Assembly: GCA_032718475.1 (NCBI GenBank)
Contig: JAUCBJ010006610.1
Span: forward strand, 1 to 64,000
Length of the DNA: 64,000 bases
Source: Nemertoderma westbladi
Lineage: Eukaryota > Animalia > Xenacoelomorpha
Direction: 5' to 3'
Shown here: piece after piece, positions 23,649-64,000 of the stretch
Layout of the letters: each line of letters opens with the position of its first letter
Position numbering within the stretch: position 1 is the first letter of the stretch
Position numbers and translations under genes: made by a program
The notes under the pieces: generated by a model
What the model saw: only the letters and a program-made list of their open reading frames with translations
Database searches by the model: none
Told to the model about the DNA's origin: nothing

Positions 23649-24820
23649 TGTTCGCGGTATTTCAACTTTTCCTAACGCGAGTTTAATATTTTTTGGATTT
23701 ATTTGAAATGAATATTCCAATATCAATACTGGGTGCGGGAACATGGAATTCGGGCACATTCAATGGACTGGGGGCGATTTACGGGCGAATATTGGGGCGA
23801 CTTACGGGGTACGGGACTCATGTCAGATATTTAAGGGCCAGGGGTGGGAGGCAAAGTTAAGCAGTACTCAGGTTTACCTGAATTACTATTAGGCCTAGCC
23901 AACTTCCTGCTGCCTGTAGAGGTGGATTTGGTAACTCGCTAGGCCTAGGGACAAGGCCCCTAGCGGTCCCTGGTCAACAGCAGTTATTACGAGCCTGAAT
24001 AAGGACTCGGAAAGTCTGCTGCTTGTGTCAGGGATTTGCGACGGGAACCGACAGACAGATCCTTAGCAGTCCCTGGTCACCGGCAGTTATTACGAGCCTG
24101 AATAAGGACTCGGAAAGCTTGCCGACTACGCCAGGGACTTGAGACGGGTCGACCGACTAAACGGAGGAAGGGTTCGACGAGGACTGCCTTCCTGGAGTGG
24201 GTTCCACGACCGGCGTTAGTATGAGCCTGAATAAGGACTTGGAAAACTACCAACAGTTGGGACTCACGATGGGCTGACAGACCCCTTGCCAAGCCGTACC
24301 GCTTTCCTGATGACCCATCCCTTCGGGGTTCGGGAAGGGTGGGACGGACACGCAACGGGGTCGAAAGACAAAGGACCGGACTCCACTGGCCTACCGACTG
24401 TTTGGAGCAGCTTCTCGGCTACCGAAGCGACTATGAGCCTGAAAAGGATTCGGAATGCTTAGGTGGTTGGTTCCCTGTGATGAACCGACGGACCCCTAGC
24501 CAAGCCGCACCGCTTTCCTGATGACCGATCCCTTCGGGGTTCGGGAAGGGTGGGACGGACATGCAAACGGGTCCACCGACGCGACAGACCCCTAGCCAAG
24601 CTGTACCGCTTTCCTGATGACCGATCCCTTCGGGGTTCGGGAAGGGTGGGACGGACACGCAACCGGGTCTACTGACTTGACCGACCCTTAGCCAAGCCAT
24701 ACCGCTTTCCTGATGACTGATCCCTTCGGGGTTCGGGGAGGGTGGGACGGACACGCAACAGGGTCGATCGACACCGACACTACGGTACCGAGACTAGGAC
24801 CGAGGGAAAATTGTGGAACA
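23649..24820 (+). repeat. 5' LTR (TGTTC...GAACA, about 1172 bp)
   Basis: Identity to the copy at 34002 begins exactly at TGTTCGCGG. The right end is inferred from the terminal inverted repeat GAACA; an alternative end at 25117 before TGGTGTCGG is possible. Confidence 0.75.
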
Positions 24821-25365: not shown

Positions 25366-25557
25366 ATGGAAGTATCGATCACACCTATTGATATAATCCA
25401 AGTTGAGCCAGGAATCTGGCACATCAAAGTCGAAGTACAAGGAACGAACGTTGGACGATTCAGGATTACCGTTCGGGTAGTCCAGGCTGAATACGAGACC
25501 TACGAAGAACTATTTTACGATATCACATATCTAGCGATCAACGAGGCGCTAGAATGA
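25366..25557 (+). CDS. Small upstream ORF (63 aa) overlapping the gag start (ATGA)
   Basis: ATG start with a globular-looking sequence. Its TGA overlaps the gag ATG. The second copy is frameshifted. Confidence 0.35.
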   Translation: MEVSITPIDIIQVEPGIWHIKVEVQGTNVGRFRITVRVVQAEYETYEELFYDITYLAINEALE

Positions 25558-27240
25558 CGACGAATAACGTCTCCGATACTGATGAAATGGACCCCCACAC
25601 AGACTCGGAAACCGACGAGGTACCAAATGTGAAGAACATGGCTCATCGACTGGGAGCTCTCAAAGGCGGAGTGACTCGAGCATACCACCGCATCGAGAAA
25701 CAACTAAAGGGAGCCGAGAACCCCCTCAGCGATATACAGACTCAATTACAGAATATCCGAAGTACCCTACAACGATATGAAGGGATGATACAGGCATATC
25801 AGGAACTCATTCCCGCAACCGATCTGGGAAACTACCCCAGACTGGAAGAACACGTCGCACATCTGGACGAGTTCCGCAAGCAACATCGGAGGACCCTCAG
25901 CCTCGTAAGAGGCTACGAGGAACAGTATTATAAACGAACTGAAAGGGCGGACGCAGAATCGGTACGGACCTGCGGAACCAGGACCGTGGTTCAGCGAAAA
26001 AAACTGGGTCCTCGAGGCACCAGCACTCCAGCGCTAGGATCGAGATATCTGGTTCAGCGCGCAGTTCTCAAGGGGGTCAACCACTCCGAGATCAGCTACG
26101 AGAACAGAGGGCACTGGCCCTTAAAGCTCGAATGGAAGACGAATATGTCCAACTACAGATTGAACAGGATGTATTAGCTGAGGAGAGACATAAACAGGAG
26201 GCCGAAATGCAGGCCGAGATACGGAAACAAGAGGCCGAACGACAAAAACAAGAGGCCGAAATGCGTAAAGTAGAGGCCGAACAACAGGCTGAGACACAGA
26301 AACAAGAGGCCGAACGACAAAAACAAGAGGCCGAAATGCGGAAAGTAGAGGCCGACCAACAGGCCGAGACACGGAAACAAGAGGCTGAACGACAAAAACA
26401 AGAGGCCGAAATGCGTAAAGTAGAGGTCGACCAACAGGCCGAGACACGGAAACAAGAGGCCAAAATGCGTAAACGAAGTGCCGAGGCCCAAGCGTTTCTT
26501 GTTCACAAAAAGAAAGCGGACATTGCTAAACTCGCAGACCACGAGGCCGCACTCATAGAACGGGACCTCCAACTATACGAGGACTGGGAAAGGGGTATAG
26601 AACAGGACTATGAACCAATCCCAGTCCCGGAATTAGAAAAGTCATTCACGCCACCGACCACGAAACCTCCGAAACCTGAGTTCCCGCCAACCATACAGTC
26701 TACGTTATCGGCACAAGCCCCGTATTCCATCCCCCACTGGTTACGCTTAAGAATGAGGAACCTTATTTCCCATCCAATCCCACGGCACCGAGTGTTCCCC
26801 AGTACGAGCCTGAAAAGGACTCGGAACGGGATGCCACCCCTCGATCCAATAATCCGTTCACATCCACACTGAAAATCTGTAACCGCGTCATCATTAAAAC
26901 CCCACCTCTCATCGATCCATCGTATATGGGAGAGAGTGTCAGTAATTATAATCCTCCTAGTCATTCCAGTTCAGACGACGTCGGCATCATCCGAACCTTG
27001 GAACACCGCCTGGCTATGCCCAAGATGGAGATCCGCACCTTCGAGGGAGACCCCGTCGATTACCTCGGATTTAAGATACGGTTCTTCGCTCAGATCGGGT
27101 CAACGGATATAACCGACGCACAAAAACTGGTATATTTATCCCAATACCTGGGTGACAAACCACGTCGAATCATTAAATGTTTCGAAGGAGGATCTCACGA
27201 AGCGTACCACGACGCATGGAAAACTCTAGATAAAAGATAA
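25554..27240 (+). pseudogene. BEL/Pao gag (frameshifted, truncated)
   Basis: The N-terminal helical region and coiled-coil repeats are followed by the BEL gag (DUF1759-like) motif MPKMEIRTFEGDPVDYLGF..QKLVYLSQYL..YHDAWKTLDKR. Confidence 0.85.
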
Positions 27241-27247
27241 GGAACTT

Positions 27248-29782
27248 ATGGAAAAGTTCCCAGAGGAAATCAGACTAGACGACAATAAAATGTATTCCGA
27301 GGGTGTGGATCACCGTGTACTCGGTATCGAATGGGACATAGAATTGGATGAGTTCATCTTCAAATATAACCCCCTACCCAAGCCCATGACAAAAAGGGGA
27401 TGTTTGTCTATAAAGAGTGCTATATTTGATCCACTAAACTTCATATCTCCAGTAACATTGGCTGGAATTAATTTGATCAAAGAGATGTGGATAGAAGGAC
27501 TGGGATGGGACGAAGAACTACCCCCATACCTCAGTTCCAAATTGAGAAAGTGGATGGAACAACTCGAACATCTACATCTTATGCGGATCCCTCGACCGTT
27601 CTTCCTCGATAAACTACCCACCGATATATTCCAGCTCCATACTTTCTCGGATGCATCGAATACCTGAATCGGCGTAGTTACCTTCTTAAGAAGATTAAGT
27701 CAGGATGGAAACGGCGATACAAGCTTCTTATTCTCTAAGGCTAAGATGGTATCCGGGGAATTCGTAGCAATGATACCGAGACTCGAGCTACAGGCCGCAG
27801 TTTGGGCAGTGAGACAGAACCGCATGATCATGCGGAAATTAAGAATCCCCATCGAATCGCAGCATTTCTGGGTTGATTCGAGTATCGTACTCTACTACCT
27901 CTACTCACCATCACGGCGACACACCACGTTCGTAGCGAACCGAGCCACGGAAATAAAACAGTGCACCGGCCGAGAACAGTGGCACCATGTAAACGGGAAA
28001 GAAAATCCAGCGGACTTATAGAGCAGAGGCGCCACCCCACGACAGCTTGGTAAGAGTAAACTTTGGCTCACAGGCCCAGAATTCCTACAGCAGCCACAAT
28101 TAACCTGGAGTACCCGATTCGATCCTGAACTAGATAGCGGAAAATACTCCGAAGACGACAAGGAGATCCGTAAAGTCCATAGAAGCGCCACTGTGGAGAT
28201 CTATAGTTGCCTGACCGAACATGCAAAGGACTCGGGCAGGCACTATAACATCGCGACTATCACGCAACCAGCGGCGTCTTTACAACTATTGATAGAGCGA
28301 ACCTCCTCAATGAGACGTCTCATCCACCATGTCATAACTCTTTGCAACTTCCTACGGTGGAAGGATAACAAACCGATAGTTCGACGAAGTATACAAGAAC
28401 TCATTATTGCGGAGGAATGTATTGTTAGATATGTCCAGAATGAAAGTTTCCCCGATGAGTGGGAACAGCTCAGTGCGGGCAAGACCTTGAAAAGGGGGAT
28501 GATGGGGGAAGATGGACTGATTCGACTAAATACCCGGATGGCAAACGCCCCGGTCGAATACAAAGTCAAATACCCAGAGCTTCTGCCCGGAACGTCAACA
28601 CTAGCCAAGCTATTAATCCAACAGTGTCACGAGGAAAACCATCACGCGGGCCAGAATTGGATTATGGTTAACATCCGGCAGATATATTGGATCTCCCACA
28701 TCCAGCCACTGATCCGGAAAGTATTAAAGCGTTGTTTCCCTTGCAGAAGATACCTAGCGCCACCGCTCACACAAAGAATGGCTGACCTACTGGCTACACG
28801 ACTGCAGTCCGACTCACCGCCGTTCTACATAACTGGAGTAGACTGTTTCGGACCATTTACAGTCATCGAGCGATGATCCAACATCAAATGCTGGGGAGCC
28901 ATCTTTACATGTCTTTGGTCTAGGGCGATTTACCTAGACCTCGTAGTAAACCTTACGCAACACGCATTTATCAATGCCCTGCGTCGGTTCGTGGCAAACA
29001 ATGGAACATGTCGTCATATGTACTCCGATAATGGTACAAACTTCGTGGGGGGAGAAAGAGAACTTAGAGAGGCGATCGAGGGATGGTTCACCGAAGACAC
29101 CGCATCCCAAGTCTGGAGGGAACACCATATACAGTGGCACTTCCAAACACCCTTAGCACCCCATACGAGCGGAGTGTGGGAGAAGCTCATCGACTTGGTA
29201 AAACGATCCATGCGCGTCGCATTAGGAGACACCCGGGTAACCCACGACACCCTCCGCACAACGTTCTGCGAGATCACGGCTACCCTAAACAACTGGCCCA
29301 TCGTACCTATCCGCGATGACCCCACAGATCTGGAGCCTCTCACTCCTAACCATCTACTCGGAAGACCCAAAACCCACATTCTTCCAGAGACGATGTTTCC
29401 GGATCCCAACGATATCGCGAGACATACCAATTGGAAGAAGGCCCAAGCGTTGGCAGCGCATTGGTGGAGAATCTGGCCCCAAGAGTACCTCATAACCCTC
29501 CGGACCAGGAGGAAGTGGAATAACACCTACAGGAACGTTGCAGTTGGCGACATGGTGCTAGTTAAGGAAGACCTTAAAGACCGCGTCCACTGGCCTGTGG
29601 CGCGAGTCGTGGCAATAACCCTAAGTAAAGACGGACTTGCGAGGACTGTGACGATACGAAAGGCAAAGGGCTACTACCAACGCCCTATCCAGAGGCTGTG
29701 CCTTCTTGAAGGCAATGACAGCGGTGACTCTACGAGAGGTGATAAGTTCCCTACTCCGGATCCTGCTGTTGGACATTGGTGA
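27248..29782 (+). pseudogene. BEL/Pao pol C-terminal half: RNase H/peptidase A17 region and integrase
   Basis: VLGIEWD, TKRGCLS..FDPLNFISP, LHTFSDAS, IPRLELQAA, FWVDS, NPAD, HHCC zinc finger, TGVDCFGP, YSDNGTNFVG, GVWE, LTPNHLL, GDMVLV..WPVARV. In-frame stops at about 27665, 28019 and 28874. Confidence 0.93.
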
Positions 29783-31065: not shown

Positions 31066-33666
31066 ATGGACCCAAATTGCCAAATTCTCGGCGAACTACG
31101 TAATACACTAGATTTACTAGAATATCCACAGCCTGGATCTCCTAACTTCGATGCGGAATGGAACGCCCTGATAAATGAGAATGTGCGAATCATTAAATTC
31201 TCCGGGCGAGAGGGACCGGATTCCCGTAATCTACGAGAGCTCCGGTTGTCCGATGCTAGTACGAGACTGAAAAGAACTCGGAACGCAAAGGCAACCAGAG
31301 GAGAGGAGTTGTCGTTCTGGGATACGTTCCGGCAAAGCGTCTACAAATCCCGATGTTTCATATACGACAACGAGGGAAACGCGACGCCCACCTCGAAAGC
31401 GATTACGTTGGCGCGATGCCAAAGTTTCGTCGACGACAAGAGTACGTACCTCACCCACTGGGGAAACCTAGCGGAGTGTACAGCGACGCTGCGAGAGGAA
31501 CGTATATCAGTTATCCAGAATCGCGACGACTACCAGGAGAAGTATGGGACGAATGAATACGGTCGATCATTGGTCATCGTCCTCGGAACCTTGGATGGTC
31601 TGGTGTTGATATATCGAATATTCCCAACACCCAAACAGGAGGTGCGGACAGCCGGATCGATCTGGCTATTACCACCGGAGATCCAACAGATCCTATTTGA
31701 TTTTGATGTCATTAAAATCGGGTTGGTTATAAAGGCGGACGTCCGAAACGACTACGCTAATGCCCCTTTCGGAAGAAACCGTCGAGAAGATCTCAACGCC
31801 ATGAGTCATTGCGTCGATACCCAAACACTGTTAGCCTGGTTACGATCCACTGAATTCATGCGTGGACTCCGGGAGGTGAGACGGACAAAATCCGGTATCA
31901 GCTACCTCGCGGTGCTAAACGGCGGTATAGACTTTAAACCTCAGAAATTCCAGGATTATAATAAGATACATGGTGGGTACCCAGAATTAGAGATAAAGAG
32001 TGAGCGAGAGAGTCATTGGAAGGACGTAGAAAGAAAGTGGACAATCCACCACAAGTGGGAGAATCCGGATCGACGGAACTATATCTACGTCGTTATGGAA
32101 TCATACACAGTTGCCAAGTTCGTCTGTAAGACTCTCGATAATCTCATTAAGGCGGTTCCTAGATCCTTTATCGACTATGAGTGGAACGAAGTTATCGACC
32201 ACGCGTTCAAAGCGGTAGAGAATATTCCACCGGGAGAGACGAAAACGCTCCACGTCATCGCATCCTGGGACGAGAATGGACCGTTCGACATTCCTACGAT
32301 TGCTGATTTCCTCGGTGCAGAGGAACCACTGATATCTTCGGATGGGGAGGAATTATGGCTACAGGAAGGTGTCCTACTGTCCACACCAAAGCGACAACTC
32401 GATCCGGAAGTTGCGTACGAACCGGCCGCCAAACGGGTCACCTCGGCCGAACCTGCGATGGAAGTAGGTGTATCCACCCCACTTGGCTCCTGTAGTCCCG
32501 CTAGGGAGCTAGTAACTACCTTCGCGCTGAATGACTTCGGCGACATATGCCAGAGGTTGTCTCCATATCTGTTCCCGGGGGGAGAAGACTGGTCTTCGGA
32601 GATCCCGAGTACCAGCACCCAACAGACCCGCTCAGCGATACAGGTTGCAAAGGGTCCCAGCGTTGCTCCGACTCCCGTAGATCTCCTCGGAATTCCTCCG
32701 GCGAACGCCCCGGCACCTCTTCGCCGACCAGCTGTGGCAACGGCCCCTTCCGTTCCACAAGACCCTATGCGACTGACCCGATGGTACGCCAAACAGACCG
32801 AGTGGATCCACCACCAGAAACGGGCGCCCGGGATGCGACCGGCAGGCTATAAAGAAGGTTATCGAAATAAGAATATACTACGCCAAAGCCCAGCATTCTG
32901 CGGGCTACCAGCCACGGCGAGTATCCCCAAAAGCGACCAGCGACTGGAGTATTACGCCGGCGTCCCGATTCCGATATTCTTCGGCTGGGAGATGCAACTG
33001 GAGGTGTGCGGAAACTGCGGTTCGGAGCAGTGTCCACGCGGAAGGAGAAATCGGGTTACCGATTCGTGCCTCCAGCTCCTTGGGATACTCTACTGTCCCT
33101 ATTGCGCGACATCGGGCCACGATGTCTCGGTTTGTCCTATCCTTTACAACCTCTGCACAGATTGCGGCTTCCTTGGACATTCCGCAAGCCCCCGTTGTAA
33201 CATAAAGTGTCCTACGAAGGATGTAACCGCTATTGGAAATATGGTTATGTTTGAAACCTACGCCAATAACCACATAAAGACCAAAGTGCGGAGAAGCGCT
33301 CGAAATATCCCGCAAGAGATGGCGTGCGGGTACTTCTCGTTCCCAGAATGCCTCCATACGACAGCGACGCTACCATTCCATTACGTGGATCTATTATTAA
33401 GCGCTGGATTATTCGGCCCCTTCGAGATCCTTAGGCGTTTATATTCATATAAGGAAGAATTCGGTGACGGAAAGTGGTTCCTAGAGGCACGCACCACCGA
33501 GTTAGAGAGACGGACGGATATGATCCCGCTACCATCTAAGGGAAGAGCCGCCAGGAGACAAGCTGAAGCGATGCTCACGATGGACGTTGATGCTCCCCTA
33601 CCAGCACTGGCGATCGACGAGAGTAGACGGGCGAAGAGGAGAAAGGCGTATCTGAGTAAGAAATAG
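31066..33666 (+). CDS. Retrotransposon accessory protein: DnaQ-like 3'-5' exonuclease domain, CCHC zinc knuckles, basic C-terminus
   Basis: Uninterrupted 866-aa ORF. ExoI-like FIYDNE (D101/E103); WRN-like LPPEIQQILFDFDVIKIG..AD (D225); VDTQ; SGISYLA; ExoIII-like W..YVVME (Y341/E345). Zinc knuckles CPYCATSGHDVSVC and CTDCGFLGHSASPRC. C-terminal RRAKRRK. Confidence 0.8.
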   Translation: MDPNCQILGELRNTLDLLEYPQPGSPNFDAEWNALINENVRIIKFSGREGPDSRNLRELRLSDASTRLKRTRNAKATRGEELSFWDTFRQSVYKSRCFIYDNEGNATPTSKAITLARCQSFVDDKSTYLTHWGNLAECTATLREERISVIQNRDDYQEKYGTNEYGRSLVIVLGTLDGLVLIYRIFPTPKQEVRTAGSIWLLPPEIQQILFDFDVIKIGLVIKADVRNDYANAPFGRNRREDLNAMSHCVDTQTLLAWLRSTEFMRGLREVRRTKSGISYLAVLNGGIDFKPQKFQDYNKIHGGYPELEIKSERESHWKDVERKWTIHHKWENPDRRNYIYVVMESYTVAKFVCKTLDNLIKAVPRSFIDYEWNEVIDHAFKAVENIPPGETKTLHVIASWDENGPFDIPTIADFLGAEEPLISSDGEELWLQEGVLLSTPKRQLDPEVAYEPAAKRVTSAEPAMEVGVSTPLGSCSPARELVTTFALNDFGDICQRLSPYLFPGGEDWSSEIPSTSTQQTRSAIQVAKGPSVAPTPVDLLGIPPANAPAPLRRPAVATAPSVPQDPMRLTRWYAKQTEWIHHQKRAPGMRPAGYKEGYRNKNILRQSPAFCGLPATASIPKSDQRLEYYAGVPIPIFFGWEMQLEVCGNCGSEQCPRGRRNRVTDSCLQLLGILYCPYCATSGHDVSVCPILYNLCTDCGFLGHSASPRCNIKCPTKDVTAIGNMVMFETYANNHIKTKVRRSARNIPQEMACGYFSFPECLHTTATLPFHYVDLLLSAGLFGPFEILRRLYSYKEEFGDGKWFLEARTTELERRTDMIPLPSKGRAARRQAEAMLTMDVDAPLPALAIDESRRAKRRKAYLSKK

Positions 33667-33902: not shown

Positions 33903-34001
33903 ATCAAGACTATGCAATATTAAAATTTGGGTTTTTTTTATGGGAAATGACCTACGCAAACTCGATCTACCGATAGACCTCACGAAGGTCATTGGGGGGA
34001 C

Positions 34002-35045
34002 TGTTCGCGGTATTTCAACTTTTCCTAATGCGAGTTGAATATTTTTTGGATTTATTTGAAATGAATATTCCAATATCAATACTGGGTGCGGGAACATGGA
34101 ATTTGGGCACATTCAATGGACTGGGGGCGATTTACGGGCGAATATTGGGGCGACTTACGGGGTACGGGACTCATGTCAGATATTTAAGGGCCAGGGGTGG
34201 GAGGCAAAGTTAAGCAGTAATCAGGTTTACCTGAATTACTATTAGGCCTAGCCAACTTCCTGCTGCCTGTAGAGGTGGATTTGGTAACTCGCTAGGCCTA
34301 GGGACAAGGCCCCTAGCGGTCCCTGGCCAACAGCAGTTATTACGAGCCTGAATAAGGACTCGGAAAGTCTGCTGCTTGTATCAGGGATTTGCGACAGGAA
34401 CCGACAGACAGATCCTTAGCAGTCCCTGGTCACCGGCAGTTATTACGAGCCTGAATAAGGACTCAGAAAGCTTGTCGACTACGCCAGGGACTTGCGACGG
34501 GTCGACCGACTAAACGGAGGAAGGGTTCGACGAAGACTGCCTTCCTGGAGTGGGTTCCACGACCGGCGTTAGTATGAGCCTGAATAAGGACTTGGAAAAC
34601 TACCAACAGTTGGGACTCACGACGGGCTGACAGACCCCTAGCCAAGCCGAAGCGACTACGAGCCTGAAAAGGATTCGGAACGCTTAGGTGGTTTGGTCCC
34701 TGTGATGAACCGACGGACTCCTAGCCAAGCCGCACCGCTTTCCTGATGACCGATCCCTTCAGGGTTCGGGAAGGGTGGGACGGACACGCAAACGGGTCCA
34801 CCGACGCGACAGACCCCTAGCCAAGCTGTACCGCTTTCTTGATGACCGATCCCTTCAGGGTTCGGGAAGGGTGGGACGGACACGCAACCGGGTCTACCGA
34901 CTTGACCGACCCTTAGCCAAGCCATACCGCTTTCCTGATGACTGATCCCTTCGGGGTTCGGGAAGGGTGGGACGGACACGCAACAGGGTCGATCGACACC
35001 GACACTACGGTACCGAGACTAGGACCGAGGGAAAATTGGGGAACA
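34002..35045 (+). repeat. Second LTR (shared 3'/5' LTR), about 128 bp shorter
   Basis: Follows the PPT GGGGGGA. Matches 23649-24820 except that about 24297-24424 is missing. Confidence 0.8.
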
Positions 35046-36703: not shown

Positions 36704-37800
36704 AGATCAGTTAGGTACTTGGCAGGATTTCCTCGACTTCTGGAGCCAGTAGGTGGAGTTATCATCACCCCATCATCATTATGATGATCTAAGGACATGC
36801 GTAGAACATAGTCAACAACAATTATGAACAAGAATGGTGCAAGTGTGTCTCCCTGGAGGACGCTCCATAACACTTCAAATGGTTCTGTGTCACCGTCAAC
36901 CGTAGACACAAATGTTGTCGAACCATCGTATACTGATCTGATCGCTGCAATAATTTCATCAGGAATCCCGCCCATATAATGAAAGTATGCTGAACATACG
37001 TGAGCGAGAGACTGAGTCAAAGGCCTTGAAGAAGTCAACAAAGATAACAGCCAGATGCCTGTCTTTCTTTTGTGATAACTCTTCAATTATCCTTCTAAGT
37101 GCCATAATGGGCTCCATGGTCCCACGACCTTTACGGAACCCATTCTGATTTCCACGGAGCAGTCTCTCAATGGGATCCCTGATGCGATTTAATAGAATTA
37201 TATTGTATAACTCGATCTAGCAATCGAGATCAATAAGATTCCCCGAAAAGAAGCAGAGAGTGTTAGGTTGCCCTTCTTGGGAACTGGCACCAACTTATTT
37301 GTTTTCATTTCTTGTGGGACTCTTGTTGTTCGGTACATGTCTACTATGATGGGATAGATGAGCTTTAAACACTCAGGTAATTTAAAGACCTCAGGGGGAA
37401 CACCATCTACTCCACTGGCACGATTGGTCTTAATGCTCTTTGCAGCAGCCTTCACTTCTGCAAAGGAGATATCACCAATGGGAATATCTGGGAGTACAGA
37501 CTCAGACACTTTTACTTCTATAAAGTTATCAGGCAATACCCTGTCATTATTGAGGAGCTTTTCAAAGTGGGCCTTCCAACCATTGAGGCGATCGGCTGGT
37601 GATTCAGCCTTAACCTTGGTGGTTGGTTGGCTTTTTCGACCAGCAAGCAAGTTGATCGATCTCCATGCCTGGGATGATTGCCTGCTGTCGTCAGCATCAT
37701 TGATGGCATCAACCTCACACAGCCCAGCACAAAATTTCTTACCCATCACCAAAAAGTACAAGTTTGCTATGTCCAGTGCCGTTTTTATTGATTCCATCGG
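36704..37800 (-). mobile_element. RTE-clade LINE RT fragment
   Basis: RASGVDGVPPEVFK, VPVPKKGNL..FRGI, QNGFRKGR, GIPDEII, VLQGDTLAPFLFIIVVDYVLR, then LTDL. It breaks just before the expected FADD motif. Confidence 0.88.
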
Positions 37801-49022: not shown

Positions 49023-49057
49023 TAGTCAGTCCACCCGCCTTGACTCATCAATTACAA

Positions 49058-51559: not shown

Positions 51560-52940
51560 CATGAGGATCCTGAGAAGTATTTCCTGTTGATGAAAAATCC
51601 GCAGATGCGCTTAAAGGATTCCTTATCCAGCATGATGTTTGATGGACTCAAACATGTTGGAGGGAGATTAACTAATGCACCACTTTCCTTTGATACTAAG
51701 TTCCCCATCATCATTAGAAATCTTGAAATACAAATCAAGATGATTGTATATATCCATAGTAATCTTTATCATGCTGGTAGGGAACGAGTTCTTAGCGAAG
51801 TCAGAACGTGCTATTATTTTTATAAGCCGCATAAAGCACTAAATCAAGTTCTTAGGAACTGCACACCATGTAGGAAAGCATTTAGTAGGCCTTTAACCCA
51901 GCGAGAGGCAGAATTACCTACAGTAGGGAAAGAGTAAGCTGTTATGAACCACCCCTAACTAATACTGGTGTGGATTTATTTAGCCCTATTTAGGTATGTC
52001 GTACTAGAACTATAGTCAAGCGATGGTGCGTCATTTTTGTTTGTATGACTTGTAGAGCGATTCATCTGGACATGGTGAACGATTTGTCTACTAATAGTTT
52101 CATACTCAGTCTATGCCAACAAATCGCTCGCTTTCGGACTAGCAATACCATGCAATCGGATAAAGGCACCAACTTTATCAGAGCCAACAACGAGATAAAG
52201 GCTTACGTCAACGACTGGAACCAGCAACAGGTAGATGATCAGCTGAGAGTGACAGCATCCAGCTGGACTTTCAATGCCGCTGATGCTCCATGGTGGGGAG
52301 GAAGTTGGGAGAGACTTATACGCAGTGTCAAGACCGCATTCCACTTTGTCGTGCCATGCCGCGCGTATCTCACTGATGAACTCCTACGAACTCTAATGGT
52401 GGAAATTGCCGCCTACCTGAACGAGTGACTGCTCATGCCAGTCTCTTCCAGTCCCGATTCCCTAGAAGCGCTAACACCCGTGCACATTCTACTGAAGAAG
52501 CCGGTGGCCATGCTTCCCACTTCGGATATAAACGACGGAGACGAGTATTGTAAACAAACTTGGCAGCTCATGCAATTGTTATCCCGCCGTTTCGCTGACC
52601 ATTTCGAGAAGTATAATCTCCCGATGCTGCAGCTTAGAACTAAGTGGTTCGCGCAGCAGTCAGTACCGGAGACATGGTTTTAATAGTTGATTCGGATCTA
52701 CCTCACAAGAGGTAGCAGATAGGTCGTATCATCGAGACCCATATATCCGACGACGGTTTAGTGCGATCGGTAGAACTCATTGTAAAGAGACAAAACCATA
52801 AGAAGAAAGGAATCATCTTCGAGACACAACAACTGAACCGCCCCGTTGGTCGTCTATGTCTAATAGAACGAGACAGGGAGTTGTCTGGAAATTACGGTAA
52901 ACAGGAAACACTCCCGACGACCACCTCCCAGATTAAATGA
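51560..52940 (+). pseudogene. BEL/Pao integrase relic (second family)
   Basis: VGGRL..PII, H..HAG..CTPC, TGVDLF, TCRAIHLD, SDKGTNFI, PWWGGSWERLIRSVK, LTPVHIL, DDGLVRSV, RPVGRLCLI. Many stops and frameshifts. Confidence 0.9.
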
Positions 52941-54146
52941 ACATCTAGAGACTAACTGACTCTTAGTTAGGCGAGTGGGCGCAGGACCATTATTTATAGG
53001 TATATTTTGTCTTTATGTACGTTTTACTATGTAATTTTATATTATTATTATCGTTTTATTTAATTATAGTTAGTAGAATAACCCTGTAAATAATAATAGT
53101 TTAATTTATTAGTTTGTAATATATTTAGACAACGACGGGAAATAAATTCTTTTATCCCTTACTTACTGTCCGTATATTATTCTAAATGCGTGATTACAGT
53201 GAGATGTCGTACTTGTTAAAGTACAATACACCCGCCCCTACTGTACCTTAGGTATTATTGGTAAACGTAGAGTATTAGGAATGCAAAGTTCAGATCCTCG
53301 TGTCTCGGCTAAACGAAGCTTTGGGTAGTCCTTGGAAACGACTTGCCTCTTCTCACTGACATTGTTTATTGCAATATTACTCTCATACCGTAGTCCTAAA
53401 ATAATACGTATAGTAGATGATGTCCATTTAACAGTAAAACTATCACAGTAAATCTGTTAAACCCTTTGATTATCTGAAATTCTAGTCGATTAATATCGTG
53501 GCACCCACCGATATACTTAAAATACAAATTTTCTAGAATCAGTGGTTAACGTCCCCAGACAAGTTCTGGAATAAATTGATGCCCATCCTAACATAAATTT
53601 ATAAAAGTTACGGGAATAAAATTAAATTCATAATTCATTATGAATTAAATAAAATCATCAATTTTAGACAATTATTATAATATTCCCTAAAATTAATCAA
53701 TTAATAGATCATGAGAGCGGAGATTCACCCATTATAACAAGTGTGAGAGAATCCCCTTGTATGCATGGAATAGCTGGCAAAATTAATAAACATCACATAT
53801 AAGGGAGTAAAAATAACCTTTGAGCCACTATTAAATATAATTCCAGATCTGTATGCATGAGAAATACTCTAATCTCCATTGCTAGCTTTGCATAATGTCA
53901 CCATAGCAACGCCCATGCTAGATAGTCCATAGTTAGAGAACAATAGAAAGCCTTCCACGTTAAATAGAATACATAGTGTATAATATCCAAGGATACACAA
54001 CAACAACGTGACATTCTGGAAGGCATTTGACTAACGGACAAATGGACCCAAATTGTGCGAATTGTGGTATGAATGTAGAATGTGTGCATTTAAAGGTGAA
54101 TGTTACTACTAAAGTGTGTTTACAGTAGCAAACCGCAAAGGCAGCG

Positions 54147-57100
54147 ATGCTCGCTAGCCTTATATTAGCGCCGATAAACTCCCATACAATGACTGAACTG
54201 ATAGAAGAAGACCTTGGTATTAAGGAGAGATATACACAACCTCTACAAGCGTTTCTCGATAGTTTGTTGAGTGGTGATGCTAGTCAATCTACGACTGCAG
54301 ACAATGGATAATACATCGAACCACCGATGACCGAGGAACAACTTAAGCGAGAACTCGATTATAGAAAATTCATCTCACGCTATACGCATCGCGATGGTAC
54401 GTATATGGATTTCTTAACTACTGGTCATCCTATCGATTTACATGATACTGATGCTATGGATATGGAGACAGGGATGGTTCTATTTAAGTTTCACACACAA
54501 TGGAGTCGAAATGACAAACAACGTATCGAACATGAAAACTCTATTAGAAATCGTTTCGAAAGAGAAGATGTGGAAGAACCCGATAAACGCACTAACTTTT
54601 ACGAATATATGGAGTTCCTGTGAGAGACTTATCTCAATATCGCTAGTCAATAGAACTTGGAAACTCGATATCCTCAAGGTATAGATCCTGACCCCATGAT
54701 CGAACTCAAATGATTATATTTTACGATGATGTACCTTACAGCGAATCAACTGCTACCTGTTCTGCTGGACAGCTTCAAACAGATGGAAGAATACTGTAAA
54801 ACGGGAGAAAGGTTACCAGCATTTCCTCTACAAGATGTGCGTCTTTGGTATTATTGTGACTAATGCCCAACGCCATAAACATCCGCGGAGACGTTGCGAT
54901 AAACATAGTTTTACTTACAGGACTTACGGGAGTTTTGAGCGAAACCTATTTGACATCCCTCCCATGCTTGCTCGAGTCAAACGCTCCTTAAGTAAACCCA
55001 TGATCAGAGTTCCGGAATACTCGGTCAGGCCTCCCCACCCCTCAGTGCGACCACAAACTCTCGATCCTAAAAGTATAACCGACCCTCCTGAGTTATACTC
55101 ACTGTTCAAAGATCTAGTTCTACCCGAACAGTTAATCGGTGGCATTTCAGCTGTCGGTTCCATGGATATCTGTCCAACATACCCAGCCGGATTGGGACGA
55201 GGAGACTTGATCTCCCCGTTCAACCCCTATAATCGGCCTGGGTTAGCTCCTATCCAACCTGTTACAGAAGTGGAAGAAAGCATAGTAAAGAACGTGCTTG
55301 AAGCGATTCGCCAAAAGGTCAGAAAAGGAACTTACAATGTCTTAGACAAACGCAAGTTGCATCAGCAGGTGCAGGCTGTGAAAGAATTGCCATTACCTTA
55401 ATTCGATCGAGAGATTGAAGAGCTAGAGAGAGATATTGAACTCGGACATACATATTCTCTACAAGAATGCTTGGGTGATAGGTTTCGTAGACAAGAAAGA
55501 AAGAGGAGAAACAGATTGAAATGAATGAAAGAGAGGAAGCCGCTTTAGTGCAACCTGAAGCGCAAGTACTCATGATAGACCTCTACTTGAAAACTATCCT
55601 ACATCCCTCAATGGTTCCCCAGTTTGGCGATCAACTCTTTGCCACTATGCAACCTCAACCAGTCAAAACTGATTTGAGATCTCGCGAGCTTATCGCTGAT
55701 GCCCACAGGTTACAGCATTCCCTAATTGAAACCACTCGAGTAGACGGTATACTGATAGAACCTCCAGAAAATCAAACCGACCTTATCGGGCGTATGGTGC
55801 AAGAGGTTACTATGTGAGTGAGACCCTTGCAAAACTCATTCTACGGGATCAAAGACCACCCATATTTCGTCCATCTGGCTCAATATTATATGGTGAAACC
55901 CGAAGATCCTACACACAGCTTAAGATTTCTGCCCCTGATAAATCCTTTCGATGTTGTTGAATTAGAACAGCTTCAAAAACATCTAGACCAGTTGGTTAAG
56001 TCGAACTCCTTTCGAAAACCCTATAATGTTGCAAGAATTGAAAGGGAAGTTCTCCCTCATTACAACCTTGATGGATTCATCAAAACTCAATTAGTCCATT
56101 GGAATTTGGATGTGTTGTTCGAAGAAGAATGCATACAACACTATGGGAAAGAAGATATGCATACTACGCACTATTTAAAATATTGCGACCTCCCTAATGC
56201 GAGTGATAGAGCGACATTGTGGCACCCTGTAGATATGACTTTGGAAAAGGCCACTACCCCATAGAATGAAACTCGAAATATTATCTAAATGTATGGTGTA
56301 ATGTATGGCAAACTAATGTCGGAACTACGAGATTAATCCACATTCGGGGATTAGCCGGTTCTATACACGTCTTTACTCGTGCTTGCTCTGATGCCATCGA
56401 TTACTCTTTTGAGACCCTCACAGAGACCCAAAAGAGACTTAAACATGAGCAATTGGAACTCGCATGGCGTTAAGTCCTGAATACTGAGTGGAAACCAGCT
56501 ATGGGAATAGATGGATTCATGCTTCCGCAACCTGTACTCGAGATGTTATTCGACGATAAAATAATTAAAGTCGGTTCTGTGATCTATGGAGATCTTCAGA
56601 AGGATTTTAGGAATATGAATAATATTCCATATCCGTTCATCGATACCCAGCTAATAGCGCCTTGGGCAGAAGGCAGAGGATTTTTCCAAACCACTTACGC
56701 CACTACACCTAGTGGGATCAACAAAGTTCAAAGAACTTCTATCGGACATTTGGCGTATCAAGAGTATGGATGGAATTATAAGGTTGGGAATCAGCTCAAC
56801 TATCAGCAAGTTTATGGCGACCATTATTCTCGCTTATATTTCGATGGACCATTGACGGCACCAGGAGAAGTTTATAGTTTTATGAGTGTGCTCCTCCGTG
56901 CTTCCTTAGCCATTTATACTATATTCGAAAATACAGCACTTTCCAGATAGTTAGCCGATGTGTGCAGCCGAACTATACGTTCACACCCCTTAATCCTGGG
57001 AACCAAATGCACGAAATTAGTTGAACATAACAAATTTATCCGATTTGAATGTTTCAGGCACTTTCTGACTCTGTTTCGGAACATTGATAGTCAGTTTAAA

Positions 57101-58480
57101 GACTGCACACTGACCAAACTCAGCCTGCGAGATTCCGCTGCTGAGAAATTAGATAGTGCCGGATCCGCTATCTGCAAAGATGTATGCATACAGAATATGC
57201 ATTCTACTGTTCTACAGAGACCTAAACTCCTGTCGGGATATTCGGTTATGGAAATACAAACTGTAGAAACCATATCAAGAATGACTATACCTGTAGAAAT
57301 TCTTCCGACTGACGAGGAACCAACCTGTATGGTTGAATGTAATGGTTGATGGTGGCTGAACCAACCAATCCAGCCCACAGTCCCTCGTAGTAGTGATGAT
57401 GATCACACGCTGGAATGGTATCAAGGCACACAATGTCTCACTGCCTATGACTACTGACACGCCAGCTACGTGTCTAGGAAACTCTGCCGTTTATGCGCCT
57501 CTCGTGATCACACTACTCCGTTGACCTCTGATGAACTCTGTTCCTACTTTAAAGATGGAGATATATTGTGCTTATTATCGAGTCAATGATAAGCATATCT
57601 TCGCAGTCTGTCCACAGTTCATGACATAATGTCATCACTGTCAGTTAAAGGGACACGCTAGTTGGGATTGCCCTTTTAGCCCCAACATGGAAAGCGTAGA
57701 TGAGTTGATTGTATTGCGATACATATGAGCATGGGAAGCTAGCGCAGACCTTCACTGCGATTTGCACCACTGCTACTATCCCGGACGCACCTATGAGGGA
57801 GTGTACGCGTTTCACCCTTACCTATTTCCCCAAACCAAACAGAAAACTCATATTCCCAGTTATGAACTACTCAAACGTGTTGGTGAGTCCATTTTCACCA
57901 AATATATGAGGAAATATTTGAGAAATATCATCCCGAACAACCTGAACTCATATAATATACTTGGTTGTATCGGCCGGCCGAGACCTGGAGTACGGTAAGA
58001 CATTTCTAAATACACATCCCGAGTTGCAGGAGGTCCACCAACACCCTTATGAATATAAGACGAGGGAATGGGAATTAGTAAGAACTGTAAAACCCCGTAA
58101 ATACCTCACGACCCATGGCCTACCAATGGCAGTCGTATAAATGACTAAAGCAGGACCAGTCCAAGCTGCATTCCTAAGACAAGCGTTAAAGATCGTGCAA
58201 CCTCAATCCATTTGATCCTCTGGTAGACGTGTCGATACCAGAACAACTTCTCAGGAGAGAAGCATATCTTCTATGGATATCAATCAACCAGGTACCTCGA
58301 CCGGCGGATACACCTATCGTAACCCCAACCCTTCTGATGCAATTATATTGTACCCTTCCCCAAGAAGTTATAGCCCTCCGAGTAAAGTGGCTCGTAGCAT
58401 TGGGAAGAATACAACCACAGCCCAAAGGTTCAAGAAACTCCATAAACGTCATTCTAGAAAGAAAGATTGATTGTTTAGAG
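54147..58480 (+). pseudogene. Decayed accessory ORF of the second BEL/Pao element, homologous to 31066-33666
   Basis: Chain of plus-strand ORF fragments. 56501-56830 reads LPQPVLEMLFDDKIIKVGSVIYGDLQKDF..FIDTQLIAPW..SIGHLA..GWNYK. 57485-57675 reads CRLC..H..C / YCAYY..H..VCP..CHHCQLKGHASWDC. It is followed by a PPT-like GGGAGCGG and TGTTAAG at 58551. Confidence 0.72.
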
Positions 58481-59520
58481 TAGTTATTATATTAAGAAAT
58501 TGTCACTCTATGGATATTTTATAGACTTAAGTCCCATTTTCTGGGAGCGGTGTTAAGCTTTTGCGGAGAAAATGTCCCGTTTTATACAATGTGCTGGTTA
58601 CTCTAAACCCTTGAAAAACTCTCAAGAACTTTTTATTTTATGAACTAATATAAACTCACTCCCTCCAGCTTTTATTCTAAGTACAACACTTTCCCATACA
58701 TTCCCACAGAAACTCTGATGCACAGATTACGAATTCACCAGTCATTGGGAGACAGGGGGGGGGGGGGGGGGGGGAACTCGACGCAAAACCCGCCTTGGTG
58801 AATTAATATACCGCCTCAATATAAAATTATCCATTTAGGGAAAGGAGCAGGTTACAGTGGCACATTATTTTAACCAAAACAATAATAACAGGTTACAGTT
58901 TTATTTTTGAGAGTAATCAGTGGTTATGAATGAGGGATGAATTTTTATTGCGTCCAGTTTCCTCCCCTATCTGGTCATTGGATACTACTCCCTTTGTTTA
59001 CATTCTTCTTTGTTAGTCACCGTCCAATCAGTATACTTTCCCTTCTATGTCACCCCATAGCCTAAATTGCTGGATCCAATAGTTACAGGTTGATGGCATG
59101 GTAACTGGTCCCTGATTGGGAGTTCTTGCATATTTCATATGTTCTTTGGCGTTCGATGTGATTCATGCTTGTGGACTACTTGAGGCAAGAATATTCTTAC
59201 AGCACTTCAGTGTCAATGTTTATTCATTTTCTGACTTTGTCCAAAAGACCATGAGGCTAGAGTGTCAGGGAATTACACAGAACAGTAAATAAACAGGCAC
59301 ATCCATTCCTGACTTTCTGACATCTGACTGATGATTAAATGCCGCACACCACGTAATTTATATTGTTTATATTGTTATAATACTGCAATTTGTTACATAT
59401 TGATTAATGTTAATGGTTGGAGAATACTTATGAATAACCAGTAGATCTCTTGGTTTTCATGATCATTGAGGTAAGCAGAGGGGTTTACTATTCACAATTG
59501 CATAGTTCAAATAGCAGTGG

Positions 59521-62500
59521 TTTGTATGAGTTTAAGCTGTTTCATAGTCCCCAACGTATGTGAGTTAAATTCTCCTTATATGCGAGTAAAATTGGTGATA
59601 GTCAGCAAATTAGCGTGTTTCAGTACTATTGTCAGTTGTGTGAATGCGAGCGAATAATTATACAATCCTTAAGAATGTAAACATTGTGCAGTCTCATGTC
59701 CATCCGTTGTAATTAGTATAAGTCATATAATATTTAAAGCGCAGCACCTGAAAGGAACTGTTGGTATTTCACTGAAAATAAACATAGTTTTTGGAGATTA
59801 TGTATTTGAGATCAATTTAATAATATAAAGTAGCCTATGGTTCTCTCTGCCATTAAATCCAGTCTCCCACCTCCGGTAGGACATACACCGCGCTAAACTG
59901 GCTTCGTCTGGGGTCATATTTGTACAGGCTATCAGACATCATAAGACACATTAATTAACAGGTTAAACTGTTAAAGGTCTAAAAGCGTGGAACACAATAA
60001 GTAGCTTGAAATTTTCAAATAGCCAAAATTAGTAATTTGATGACCTTATAGTTTGGCTACTGAGGTTTTAGATTGTGCTGATTTCATTGGCAAGGTTTAT
60101 AAAATTGTGGTATTTCCAAAAATGGCCAATGTGTCAGTCGCAAAGTTTAAGTTCTAGCTAGTGCATTTCTATTTCAGTACTGCAGTACTCTGGTACTGGT
60201 CCGGTAATAATGTAGGGAATTATTCAGTATGTGGTATGTGCAGTAGAAGCCTCAGTAGTTGCTTGTTGGTATCATCATGCTCCTGATTAGTGATCATTTC
60301 AGCTAAATACTTAGTAGGTAGCCAATAAGTGGGAAGGTCTTTGATGGTATTGACCCTTTCAACCTTTTCGTGGATGGCGTCGTGGGTTTCTTTAGTCTTG
60401 GAATAGTGATGGTGGAAAAGCCATTTCAAATAAGTTATTGCTTTACAAAGTCTTTTCCAAGAACTGTAGTGGGCCATCGCTCTCTTCACTATAGGTGAGA
60501 GTCCTTTTGAGACATCGGGTATACCAGTCTTCCAATCTCAACTCTGAATATATGCTGATGTTCCGTTTGGGGTTGGCTGCGTAGTATCATTGTTGTCACC
60601 GACAGTGTGTAGAACCGATAGATCGAGCATTGGTTTAAACAGTTTGGATTTACTTGTCCGAATCTTTGGTTTAACAGTTTCCACTCCCTTGGCTTGTCTG
60701 ATCTCGGTGGTGGTAACATGGGGGGGGGGGGGGGGGCATTCCTCCTCTTCTTTACTCAGGAAGTCGGGGCCACCTAGCCAATTTGGCGTCTCAGTTAATT
60801 CCTTGGGTGTCGCTCCTCTGGAGGCGATATCGGTGGGATTAATAGTCCCAGGGCAATGTCTCCATTGGTCCACCTTTGTCTGGCTGAGTATAATATCCAC
60901 GCAGTTAGTTATAAAGATGCTGAACTGTCAGACTTCGTTAGTCAAATATTCTAGAACAAGTAATGCATCCGTCCAATAAACCGTTTTCCTCACCAGGTAT
61001 ACTATCTGTTCGGTGATATTCCTACCAACGGCGGTAGCATACAATGCTGCCTTTAATTCCGCTCTAAGGACACGCAGCTTGTTGTTTATTAGAGCATTCG
61101 AGGCGGCTAAGGAAACCTTAATTCCGTCCGGTGCATCGACTCTCAAATAAGCTACTATACCTATTCCAATATCACCAGCATCCGCAAAGATGTGGAGTTG
61201 ATAGGAGTAGGTGGGGAGGAGAACATGACCGAAGTATGAGCGAGAAATTTTGTATGAGTTTATGCTGTTTCATAGTCCCCAACTTATGTGAGTTAAATTC
61301 TCCTTATTTGCGAGTAAAATTGGTGATAGTCAGCAAATTAGCGTGTTTCAGTACTATTGTCAGTTGTGTGAATGCGAGCGAATAATTATACAATCCTTAA
61401 GAATGTAAACATTGTGCAGTCTCATGTCCATCCGTTGAAATTAGTATAAGTCATATAATATTTAAAGCGCAGCACCTGAAAGGAACTGTTGGTATTTCGC
61501 TGAAAATAAACATAGTTTTTGGAGATTATATAGTAGAGATCAATTTAATAATACAAAGTAGCCTATGGTTCTCTCTGCCATTGAATCCAGTCTCCCACCT
61601 CCGGTAGGTCATACACCACGCTAGACTGGCTTCGGCTGGGGTCATATTTGTACAGGCTATCAGACATCATAAGACACATTAATTAACAGGTTAAACTGTT
61701 AAAGGTCTAAAAGCGCGGAACACAATAAGTAGCTCGAAATTTTCAAATAGCCAAAATTAGTAATTTGATGACCTTATAGTTTGGCTACTGAGGTTTTAGA
61801 ATGTGCTGATTTCATTGGCAAGGTTTATAAAATTGTGGTACTTTCAAAAATGGCCAATGTGTCAGTTGAAAAGTTTAAGTTCTAGCCAGTGCACTTCTAT
61901 TTCAGTACTGCAGTACTCTGGTACTGGTCCGGTAATAATGTAGGGAATTATTCAGTATGTGGTATGTGCAGTAGAAGCCTCAGTAGTTGCTTGTTGGTAT
62001 CATCATGCTCCTGATGAGTGATCATGTCAGCTAAATACTTAGTAGGTAGCCGATAAGTGGGAAGGTCTTTGATGGTATTGACCCTTTCAACCTTTTCGTG
62101 GATGGCGTCGTGGGTTTCTTTAGTCTTGGAATAGTGATGGTGGAAAAGCTGTGTCAAATAAGTTATCGCTTTACAAAGTCTTTTCCAAGAACTGTAGTGG
62201 GCCATCGCTCTCTTCACTATACGTGAGAGTCCTTTTGAGACATCGGGTATACCAGTCTTCCAATCTCAACTCTGAATATATGCCGATGTTCCGTTTGGGG
62301 TTGGCTGCGTAGTATCATTGTTGTCACCGACAGTGTGTAGAACCGATAGATCGAGCATTGGTTTAAACAGTTTGGATTTACTTGTCTGAGTCTTTGGTTT
62401 AACAGTTTCCACTCCCTTGGCTTGTCTGATCTCGGCGGTGGTAAGATGGGGGAGGGGGGGGGGGGGGGCATTCCTCCCCTTCTTTACTCAGGAAGTCGGG

Positions 62501-62976
62501 GCCACCTAGCCAATTTGGCGTCTCAGTTAATTCCTTGGGTATCGCTCTTCTGGAGACGATATCGGTGGGATTAATAGTCCCAGGGCAATATCTCCATTGG
62601 TCCACCTTTGTCTGGCTGAGTATAATATCCACGCAGTTAGTTATAAAGACGCTGAACTGGCAGACTTCGTTAGTCAAATATTCTAGAACGAGTAATGCAT
62701 CTGTCCAATAAACCGTTTTCTCCAACAGGTATACTATCTGTTCGGTGATATTCCTACCAATGGCGGTAGCATACAATGCTGCCTTTAATTCCGCTCTAAG
62801 GACACGCAGCTTGTTGTTTATTAGAGCTTTCGAGGTGGCTAAGGAAACCTTAATTCTGTCCAGTGTATCGACTCTCAAATAAGCTACTATACCTATTCCA
62901 ATATCACTGGCATCCGCAAAGACGTGGAGTTGATAGGAGTAGGTGGGGAGAACAGGACCGAAGTATGAGTGAGAAA
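59521..62976. repeat. Tandem segmental duplication, unit about 1728 bp
   Basis: 59521-61248 is near-identical to 61249-62976 (both begin TTTGTATGAGTTTA.GCTGTTTCATAGTCCCC). Each unit holds non-coding DNA plus a BEL pol fragment. Confidence 0.92.
60220..61248 (-). pseudogene. Duplicated BEL/Pao RNase H-region fragment
   Basis: LHIFADA, RAELKAA, YWTDA, WRHCPGTINPTDIASRG, WLGGPDFL, YSSWKRL. Confidence 0.88.
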
Positions 62977-64000
62977 TCTTAAAGACTTCAATAAATGGTA
63001 AAGAGTTTTCCCACTTCATCCATTTCTTCAATAGTTTGCCCTTTAATTTGTCATCCCAAGAGTGGTTCTCGAGCCACATCTGCTGGACTAGACTCCGAGC
63101 AACCAGGATTACTGGGCTAATGAATCCAAATGGATAGAAACATGTACTCAGAATACTCAAGCAGTTGTTTTAATTGGAAGAACAAAATATCGCCCTCTGT
63201 ATCCCACTTTAGTCCGAGAGTTTTGGTTTCTGGGAGGTCGTCTTTAATGAGGTCGAGATCTTTACCACCTCATTCTTTCTCTGGGATCGCCTCCAGAAAC
63301 CCAAGAGAGTTGCTGGTGAATTTCGTTAACCGGAATCTACCGTGTTGAAGACACTCTACCTTTCCCTTGGCAACCTCTATAGCTTCTTTCACCGTAGGTA
63401 GTGACTTAAGGTTGTCGTTCATGTAGATGGCACATTTGATGTTATCGATGACTGCTTTGGGGAAGGCGTCTCGATTCTCATCTGTAGTAGTACGCACTAC
63501 TCAGCCGGCATTGGATGGACTAGAGATAATTCCGAAGGCCTGGATAGTCATCCAGTACTCTACTGGTTCTTCGTCGAAGTCACCATTAGGCCAACATAAG
63601 AAACGTAAGCTATCTCGGTCCCATTGCAGCGCTTTCACCTGAAGAAACATGCCTTCTATATCGGAGGCAAAGGCGATAGAATACTGCCGGAGTTGCAGTA
63701 GTATTCTCTACAATGATTGAAGTGGGTTGGGTCCTGGCAATAAATCAGAGTTGAGGGATTGTCCCTTATATAGCGCAGAGCCGTCGAACACCACCCGGAC
63801 TTCGTTGGGCTTTCCGGGTTTAGGAACGTAATGGTGTGTTAGATAATACATCCTCTCCATCATAGGTGTATCAGTTGGAACTCGCTCTGCGTATCCCTTG
63901 TCGATGAACTTTTTCAACTGGGTCTTTTACATCTCTTTGGCTTGGTCATTACTTGACAAACGTCGATGTAGTTGTTCGATTCTCTTGATGGCTAATGGTC
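61948..64000 (-). pseudogene. BEL/Pao pol (RT and RNase H region) relic, third family, continuing beyond the window
   Basis: YYLTHH.V.KPGKP..VRVVFDGSA..SLN..LLPGP, ASDIEGMFLQ, LRFLCW, FGIISSP, IYMND, FRLTKF, LGLKWD, FGFISP, LHVFADAS. Confidence 0.92.

Follow-up and report, generated by a model that had tools for sequence, protein, structure and literature searches.

An exonuclease-like and zinc-knuckle third open reading frame common to two diverged BEL/Pao retroelement families of Nemertoderma westbladi

Belpaoviridae are listed with gag, pol and env only, in the order gag, protease, reverse transcriptase (RT), RNase H and integrase (PMC8742986). What, then, is a third open reading frame (ORF) with nuclease-like and zinc-knuckle parts doing behind the integrase of such elements? 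The question is raised by a 64,000-nt stretch of Nemertoderma westbladi DNA (contig JAUCBJ010006610.1, assembly GCA_032718475.1), which is called the window here and to which all coordinates refer. Copy 1 is a BEL/Pao element with an open ORF3 of 866 amino acids (aa), and copy 2 is a decayed BEL/Pao element of a second family. A sequence-only reading of the window had proposed that copy 2 carries the same cassette in the same position, and that the cassette is an ancient, selectively retained module that defines a BEL/Pao lineage. Analysis of the window and of public sequences reveals that the two ORFs are homologous and lie in the same position, that both families are multi-copy, and that a protein family outside the window has the same two parts. 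Overall, it is fairly probable that two deeply diverged BEL/Pao families each carry a homologous ORF3, with a predicted RNase D/EXD2-like exonuclease domain and a triple zinc knuckle, between integrase and 3' long terminal repeat (LTR), where it serves the element.

The homology of the two ORFs is supported by several searches. The 866-aa protein matched copy 2 by tblastn at 56516-56824 with E-values (E) of 4e-7 to 8e-7 and 26% identity. A frameshift-aware alignment of the whole protein with the decayed ORF scored 105, the maximum in 40 shuffles being 53. The knuckle region alone scored 53, which was reached by none of 200 local-window shuffles and by one of 100 whole-region shuffles. A profile that excluded all window sequence and was made of five outside proteins matched copy 2 at 56519-56833 (independent E-value, iE, 3e-10) and at 57558-57674 (iE 2.7e-4), and a module-only profile matched the copy 2 knuckles at 1.9e-7. 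One of the outside proteins, P0001, also matched the exonuclease-like part of copy 2 by tblastn at E 3e-13. Because both parts of the outside profile were found in the right order, the homology is taken as real and the ORF as part of a wider, unnamed family. That copy 2 carries a homologue of the copy 1 ORF3 in the same position is, on this evidence, virtually certain.

The peptides on which the sequence-only reading was based are all present in the + strand (RLIHIRG at 56330, LPQPVLE at 56522, IDTQL at 56639, SIGHLA at 56738, GWNYK at 56768, YCAYY at 57564, VCP at 57606 and CHHC at 57630). Their pairing with the 866-aa protein holds for the exonuclease and knuckle parts, but the pairing of RLIHIRG with SLVIVLG was made by eye only, lies outside the significant alignments and needs an insertion of about 30 aa. 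The Cys/His motif is there as described, in three clusters, the first at 57485. Absence of similarity at the DNA level was borne out for the coding parts (no blastn match; 34 of 60 shuffles reach the score) but not for the start of the ORF, where the first 14 nt, encoding MDPNC, are identical at 31066 and 54042. This 14-mer occurs twice in the window, with 4.5e-6 occurrences expected in the spacer, and was noticed after the fact. Because of this identity the copy 2 ORF3 is taken to start, in all likelihood, at 54042 and not at 54147, and the spacer, earlier put at about 1.2 kb, measures 1.1 kb. An apparent motif common to the stretches upstream of both start codons scored no higher than 125 of 1000 shuffles and was rejected, as were similarities between the two spacers (23 of 300) and between the two 3' untranslated regions (166 of 300).

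Both elements have the same layout on the same strand, namely integrase, a spacer of 1.1-1.3 kb (1.28 kb between pol and ORF3 in copy 1), ORF3, polypurine tract and a TG-start (Table 1), the cassette following a BEL integrase in each. The two integrases are of the BEL/Pao type, with DUF5641 and H2C2 matches. Purine-rich 8-mers stand immediately before TGTT at 34002 and 58551, in keeping with a BEL/Pao polypurine tract of about 10 nt. The LTRs of copy 1 are about 1.0-1.2 kb long and 97-98% alike, as compared with 0.2-1.2 kb for the flanking LTRs of BEL/Pao elements. They enclose gag DUF1759, PF05380 and integrase in that order, with the protease and most of the RT apparently deleted. Copy 2 is a dead relic that is cut off 5' of about 51561, and contigs of other copies continue upstream into sequence not in the window. 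The truncation has also removed the primer-binding site, which in BEL/Pao elements is for tRNA-Arg or tRNA-Gly. Its candidate 3' LTR is unconfirmed because the 5' partner is absent. The reading path of its ORF3 was picked by eye for openness and has 20 stops in the chosen frames as compared with 193 in the other two frames combined. The N-terminal region is indeed much longer, with about 760 codons as compared with 167 in copy 1, provided that it forms one ORF with the rest, and it has no detectable similarity to the copy 1 ORF3 (49 of 60 shuffles reach the score). The basic C-terminal tail of both copies is a possible nuclear-localisation signal.

Table 1. Features of the two BEL/Pao elements in the window.
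Feature	Positions	Strand	Evidence or remark
Copy 1 5' LTR	23649..24820	+	97-98% alike to the repeat that starts at 34002; 5' boundary firm, 3' boundary inferred by way of a short terminal inverted repeat
Copy 1 gag-pol, broken, apparent internal deletion near 27240	25491..29782	+	Pfam DUF1759, Integrase_H2C2, DUF5641; Peptidase_A17 1.8e-37; translation
Copy 1 open 866-aa ORF3	31066..33666	+	Exonuclease-like residues 155-382, Cys/His module 644-779
Copy 1 polypurine tract and 3' LTR (LTR from 34002)	33994..35045	+	3' LTR common to following partial tandem unit
Copy 2 decayed BEL/Pao integrase (H2C2, core, DUF5641)	51561..52940	+	tblastx against copy 1 integrase E 4.5e-47; Pfam PF17921 5e-7, PF18701 7.7e-8
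Copy 2 AT-rich non-coding spacer, 1.1 kb	52941..54041	+	GC 0.31
Copy 2 decayed ORF3, about 1470 codons, six frame segments, 19 internal stops	54042..58470	+	54861-54948 unassigned
Copy 2 ORF3 start, 14 nt identical to copy 1 ORF3 start	54042..54055	+	Sequence match
Copy 2 long N-terminal region	54042..56329	+	No Pfam match apart from a spurious one of 20 aa (E 0.17)
Copy 2 DnaQ-like/DEDDy-type exonuclease-like domain	56330..56960	+	tblastn, frameshift-aware alignment, outside profile, P0001 tblastn E 3e-13, RNase D models E 0.012-0.013
Copy 2 three Cys/His clusters (zinc-knuckle module)	57485..57662	+	Degenerate, with frame change and stop
Copy 2 basic C-terminal tail, also in copy 1	58426..58470	+	Translation
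Copy 2 candidate polypurine tract	58543..58550	+	Sequence
Copy 2 candidate 3' LTR, 138 nt, TGTT...AACA	58551..58688	+	Two contigs of other copies match to 58556, then diverge

Some further observations concern the internal structure of copy 1. Near 27240 its gag (DUF1759) joins the end of the RT directly, so that the gag knuckles, the protease and most of the RT seem to be deleted while ORF3 is open. Copy 1 may represent a non-autonomous subfamily that has retained ORF3. Its gag contains in-frame repeats of 75, 54 and 21 nt at 26116-26559, which code for a coiled-coil-like stretch. Over 23649-36705 a second partial unit follows copy 1 and shares its 3' LTR in a tandem array (97-98% alike), which is cut at about 36705 by a minus-strand piece resembling a long interspersed element (LINE).

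The ORF3 is a member of an unnamed, Pfam-less protein family. Across 1.84 billion representatives, the full HMMER search returned six matches. In five of the six a conserved segment comes after the Cys/His module, and in four of these five the exonuclease-like part is also present upstream. The remaining match, P0006, is a repeat protein that is not related to them and was dropped as an artefact; P0007 is a near-copy of P0003 and was excluded from the profiles. The five outside clusters are annotated as 'hypothetical protein' only. Since five metagenomic clusters share the module, it belongs to an unnamed protein family and is not a one-off capture. The exonuclease cores of copies 1 and 2 are 27% identical and are as distant from each other as from the outside homologues (20-32%), and for the copy 2 core P0001, at 32%, is a slightly nearer relative than copy 1. 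Word-indexed protein searches yielded no near-length relative among 1469 candidates, and another yielded one among 7987, which was P0001 itself. Locus searches gave no confirmed match in viral contigs or prokaryote genomes and one locus, L001, among 145 pattern matches in metagenome contigs. L001 encodes P0004 behind an AT-rich stretch. In this protein (79-2025) the Cys/His module is duplicated, at a spacing of 585 nt, and the exonuclease part is degenerate. The following 1.3 kb or so is non-coding, and an acidic ORF with no Pfam match begins at the contig end (3381-3685). The non-coding stretch may represent an LTR, and the acidic ORF the gag of the next unit.

Whether the two families are multi-copy was examined in public DNA contigs from this organism. 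They come from four runs and at most three samples, one of which is possibly the source of the window. All 30 bins of both elements were covered in runs X1-X3 by contigs that are 80-99% alike, and both families are multi-copy. In family 1 the contig cover of ORF3 and that of pol agree in order of magnitude. In family 2 one contig of another copy spans the knuckles to the polypurine tract, and overlapping pieces also occur across the integrase end. The proposal of an ancient cassette that is not a one-off capture stands, on the multi-copy state of both families, the existence of outside homologues and the distance between the exonuclease cores. Selective retention was also proposed, and two observations hint at it. 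The copy 1 ORF3 is open for 866 codons, as against 4 stops in 852 codons (terminal included) in the pol frame, and 8 of the 12 ORF3 variants listed, a tool-chosen subset of about 1050 rows, are synonymous.

The upstream part of ORF3 is very likely of DnaQ-like ancestry. Exonucleases of the DEDDy type have an ExoI motif D-x-E, an ExoII aspartate and an ExoIII motif Y-x3-D. P0001 and P0002 have D-x-E, D and Y-x3-E in order (a D-E-D-E pattern), and an ExoII aspartate follows a KxG segment in copy 1, copy 2, P0001 and P0002. Copy 1 has D225 and Y341-x3-E345; in copy 2 ExoI is unreadable and ExoIII cannot be followed within a single frame. The third motif is Y-x3-E in copy 1, P0001 and P0002, in place of Y-x3-D. 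The domain would work like the DEDDy family, yet it is not filed as a canonical member. Searches against known proteins converge on the same group. The Atlas gave 0.93 to PF01612 clusters with 165 of 256 features shared, PF01612 being found on 50% of that cluster. RNase D models matched copy 2 itself at E 0.012-0.013, EXD2 was matched by profile at E 0.36 with a second EXD2 value of 1.8, and a Foldseek search with one predicted fold placed EXD2 chains at ranks 1-6 (E 0.19-0.86, TM 0.1-0.2). A wide VIA search returned short helical matches only (Z at most 5.0), and phmmer with the copy 1 domain against PDB gave a single irrelevant match. The domain is predicted to be an exonuclease, probably by descent. 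In the downstream module, the middle knuckle is CX2CX4HX4C in copy 1 and in all five outside clusters and is degenerate in copy 2. P0001 matched HIV nucleocapsid at E 1e-4, a match of the knuckles to Lin28 had E 0.006, and the first Atlas rows for the knuckle were zf-CCHC at 0.87, a lead only. The module differs from the BEL gag knuckle, as none of 120 BEL polyproteins matched it at iE below 0.01.

Several observations weigh against an exonuclease-like ORF3 that belongs to both families, and they bear on different alternatives. The conserved segment that follows the knuckles gave no significant alignment in copy 2. Similarity by chance or convergence, between a generic nuclease-like stretch and Cys-rich motifs, would agree with the knuckle-only tblastn against copy 2 (E 0.54-9.8) and with the unaligned linker and N-terminal parts. 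Such similarity is refuted by the frameshift-aware alignment, by the ordered matches of the outside-only profile and by the P0001 match, and its probability is negligible. It has also to be considered that the ORF at 54-58.5 kb is a separate insertion or a host pseudogene that stands behind the integrase by accident. Among the contigs listed none bridges the copy 2 integrase and ORF3, and a 5' LTR that could form a pair is absent. Over 55312-58074 the summed contig depth, which is no copy number, is one to two orders below that over integrase, spacer and the first 1.3 kb of ORF3, so that the cassette may be missing from many relatives of copy 2 or be more than 20% different in them. Against an accidental insertion, diverged contigs cover every bin between integrase and polypurine tract and overlap at the integrase end and from knuckles to tract, and the strand and layout are those of copy 1, whose ORF lies within an LTR pair. 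Such an accident is very unlikely, and the linkage of other copies to this integrase/LTR family, on which the sequence-only reading also depended, is favoured by the bin cover, with no bridging contig among those listed. Summed depth over 54084-55311, over 58075-58688 and over the spacer is far higher than over 55312-58074, and loose ends occur at 58276; there may be an abundant derivative of copy 2 that is internally deleted or diverged.

Against the exonuclease identity itself, Pfam gave no exonuclease match, there is no single significant match to a named exonuclease, and the label comes from converging sub-threshold matches. The two predicted folds are of low confidence (predicted local distance difference test, pLDDT, 35 and 46, the latter being the model used with Foldseek). 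Loss of catalysis in these families is a more serious alternative, in which ORF3 would be an RNA-binding decoy or scaffold only, like EXD1 or Maelstrom. ExoI is ambiguous in copy 1, where D101-x-E103, before a long insertion, is the best profile match and is reached by 37 of 500 shuffles. A rival alignment in which the ExoI strand is missing was reached by 9 of 1000 shuffles for P0002 and was not significant for P0001 and P0004. Over 31126-31808 a further copy of family 1 is laid out in the same way, with 3 gap letters, so that this is a family trait and not private decay. P0004 and P0005 have no clear set of acidic residues, and the third motif has E, not D. On the other hand, P0001 and P0002 retain all the motifs in order, and copy 1 retains D225, Y341-x3-E345 and the candidate D101-x-E103. 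A pseudo-nuclease is, on balance, conceivable but somewhat improbable. The last alternative concerns the origin of ORF3 and would make it an old accessory ORF that moves between unrelated retroelements by template switching, gained separately by both BEL families and marking no lineage. The integrases of copies 1 and 2 are 31.7% identical, as compared with medians of 39.5% and 35.5% to 120 listed BEL integrases of other animals, decay lowering the copy 2 values; most of these 120, from 1554 matches at E<=1e-10, carry the Pao domain PF05380. FastTree did not join the two integrases, the copy 2 exonuclease core is nearer to P0001 than to copy 1, and DEDDy ORFs of rotifers, which Athena elements also carry, have at least two separate origins by gain (PMC5408684). 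In contrast, a tree constrained to hold the two integrases together was 5.8 log-likelihood units above a quick free search, for which long branches may be the cause, and the position, the similar spacer length and the 14-nt start are shared. In the approximately unbiased (AU) test p-AU was 0.685, from 40 of the 120 integrase matches (13 chosen, 27 random) that had been found with a profile of both copies, and with no outgroup. A single clade is allowed by these data, being neither shown nor rejected. In L001, the only outside locus, an integrase was not found within its 3.7 kb, and the viral, prokaryote and metagenome contig searches put none of the outside homologues next to an integrase. Vertical descent from a shared BEL ancestor is the simplest origin and has an even chance of being correct; exchange between lineages stands close behind and is about as likely, a mobile module being an entirely plausible account though held at somewhat less than even confidence. 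With the integrases this far apart and no outside homologue beside an integrase, the proposal that the cassette defines a BEL/Pao lineage is not established.

How an ORF3 kept by both families would act can be outlined from its parts. Translation of the protein may begin at a start of its own, downstream of the AT-rich spacer, by way of a subgenomic or spliced RNA. The nucleocapsid-like knuckles would hold single-stranded RNA, and the DEDDy-type domain would remove 3' nucleotides or, where ExoI has been lost, merely bind RNA ends. The basic tail may carry the protein to the nucleus. The most likely target would be host silencing RNA or the transcript ends of the element itself, any single one of these being unlikely to be the right choice. 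The gene is old and has probably been retained by selection. A much stronger version, in which an ancient BEL/Pao lineage across distant animals carries a nucleocapsid-guided ribonuclease that destroys or mis-trims host PIWI-interacting RNAs, that is, a dedicated anti-RNA-silencing nuclease, is improbable.

The rest of the window is repeat-rich animal DNA with LINEs, one USP gene and three BEL/Pao pieces, and no tRNA genes were found in it. The third BEL/Pao piece (59521-64000, minus strand; RT and Pao domain) has a 1.73-kb tandem duplication at 96% identity and stops before the integrase, so that it has no bearing on the cassette. An unbroken 825-aa ORF of a USP-type deubiquitinase (16281-18758; Pfam UCH 1e-56), which is GC-rich in the middle and ends in a 24-nt repeat, may be the sole host gene of the window. 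On the minus strand at 44832-49025, a LINE ORF2 of 1397 aa is open through two in-frame tandem repeats with 30-nt and 21-nt units. A 68-nt minisatellite unit is found at 12962-13635 and as a single copy at 58827-58885, just past copy 2. It marks a dispersed repeat of very high abundance.

Known systems offer several points of comparison. An exonuclease ORF in BEL/Pao elements was not found in the literature searched, Repbase, subscription journals and supplements being outside its scope and possibly holding such elements; the word exonuclease is absent from the available main texts of PMC3118150, PMC13524379 and PMC12440569. Some BEL/Pao elements carry env as a third gene between pol and 3' LTR, including Roo and mosquito elements with a Chuviridae-like glycoprotein (PMC8742986; PMC13524379 in its available part). 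The ORF3 has the same place, but its parts are nuclease-like and zinc-knuckle and do not match any fusion protein. Cellular RNase D, EXD2 and Nibbler-MUT-7 are the best, non-significant, matches of the domain. Unlike them, ORF3 is borne by an element, falls below every family cut-off and has Y-x3-E as third motif. The RNase D of Trypanosoma (PDB 7c42/7c43) also joins an RNase D domain to CCHC knuckles, with a weak knuckle match at E 0.019. EXD1, Maelstrom and MUT-7 act in small-RNA pathways (in part from PMC5408684). Retroviral nucleocapsid and Lin28 CCHC knuckles have the same CX2CX4HX4C spacing as the middle knuckle, whereas ORF3 has three clusters and a conserved downstream segment in a separate ORF that BEL gag knuckles do not match.

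The closest parallel is found in rotifers. The Ty3/Gypsy-like LTR elements Juno and Vesta have been described with a DEDDy ORF3 of untested activity, and exchange of the ORF between lineages has been proposed (PMC5408684, in the text available); the available parts of PMC6431247 and PMC6338049 give the same account. As in Juno/Vesta and Athena/Terminon elements, an enzyme-like third ORF with an RNase D-like DEDDy domain follows pol of an LTR element, and the roles proposed for the rotifer ORF3 are RNA 3'-end processing or silencing, as here (PMC5408684 and PMC6431247, available text). The N. westbladi ORF3, compared with these by description and not by sequence, differs in its BEL/Pao carrier, in a D-E-D-E pattern as against DEED (PMC5408684, available text), in the triple CCHC-like module with a further conserved segment, and in having homologues from unrelated metagenomes. 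A non-env, enzyme-like third gene in two BEL/Pao families extends the rotifer exonuclease ORF3 observation to a second LTR superfamily. The unnamed, Pfam-less family also offers intact natural members for assay (copy 1, P0001 and P0002), so that the role of retroelement-borne DEDDy exonucleases, including action against small-RNA silencing, becomes a testable question.

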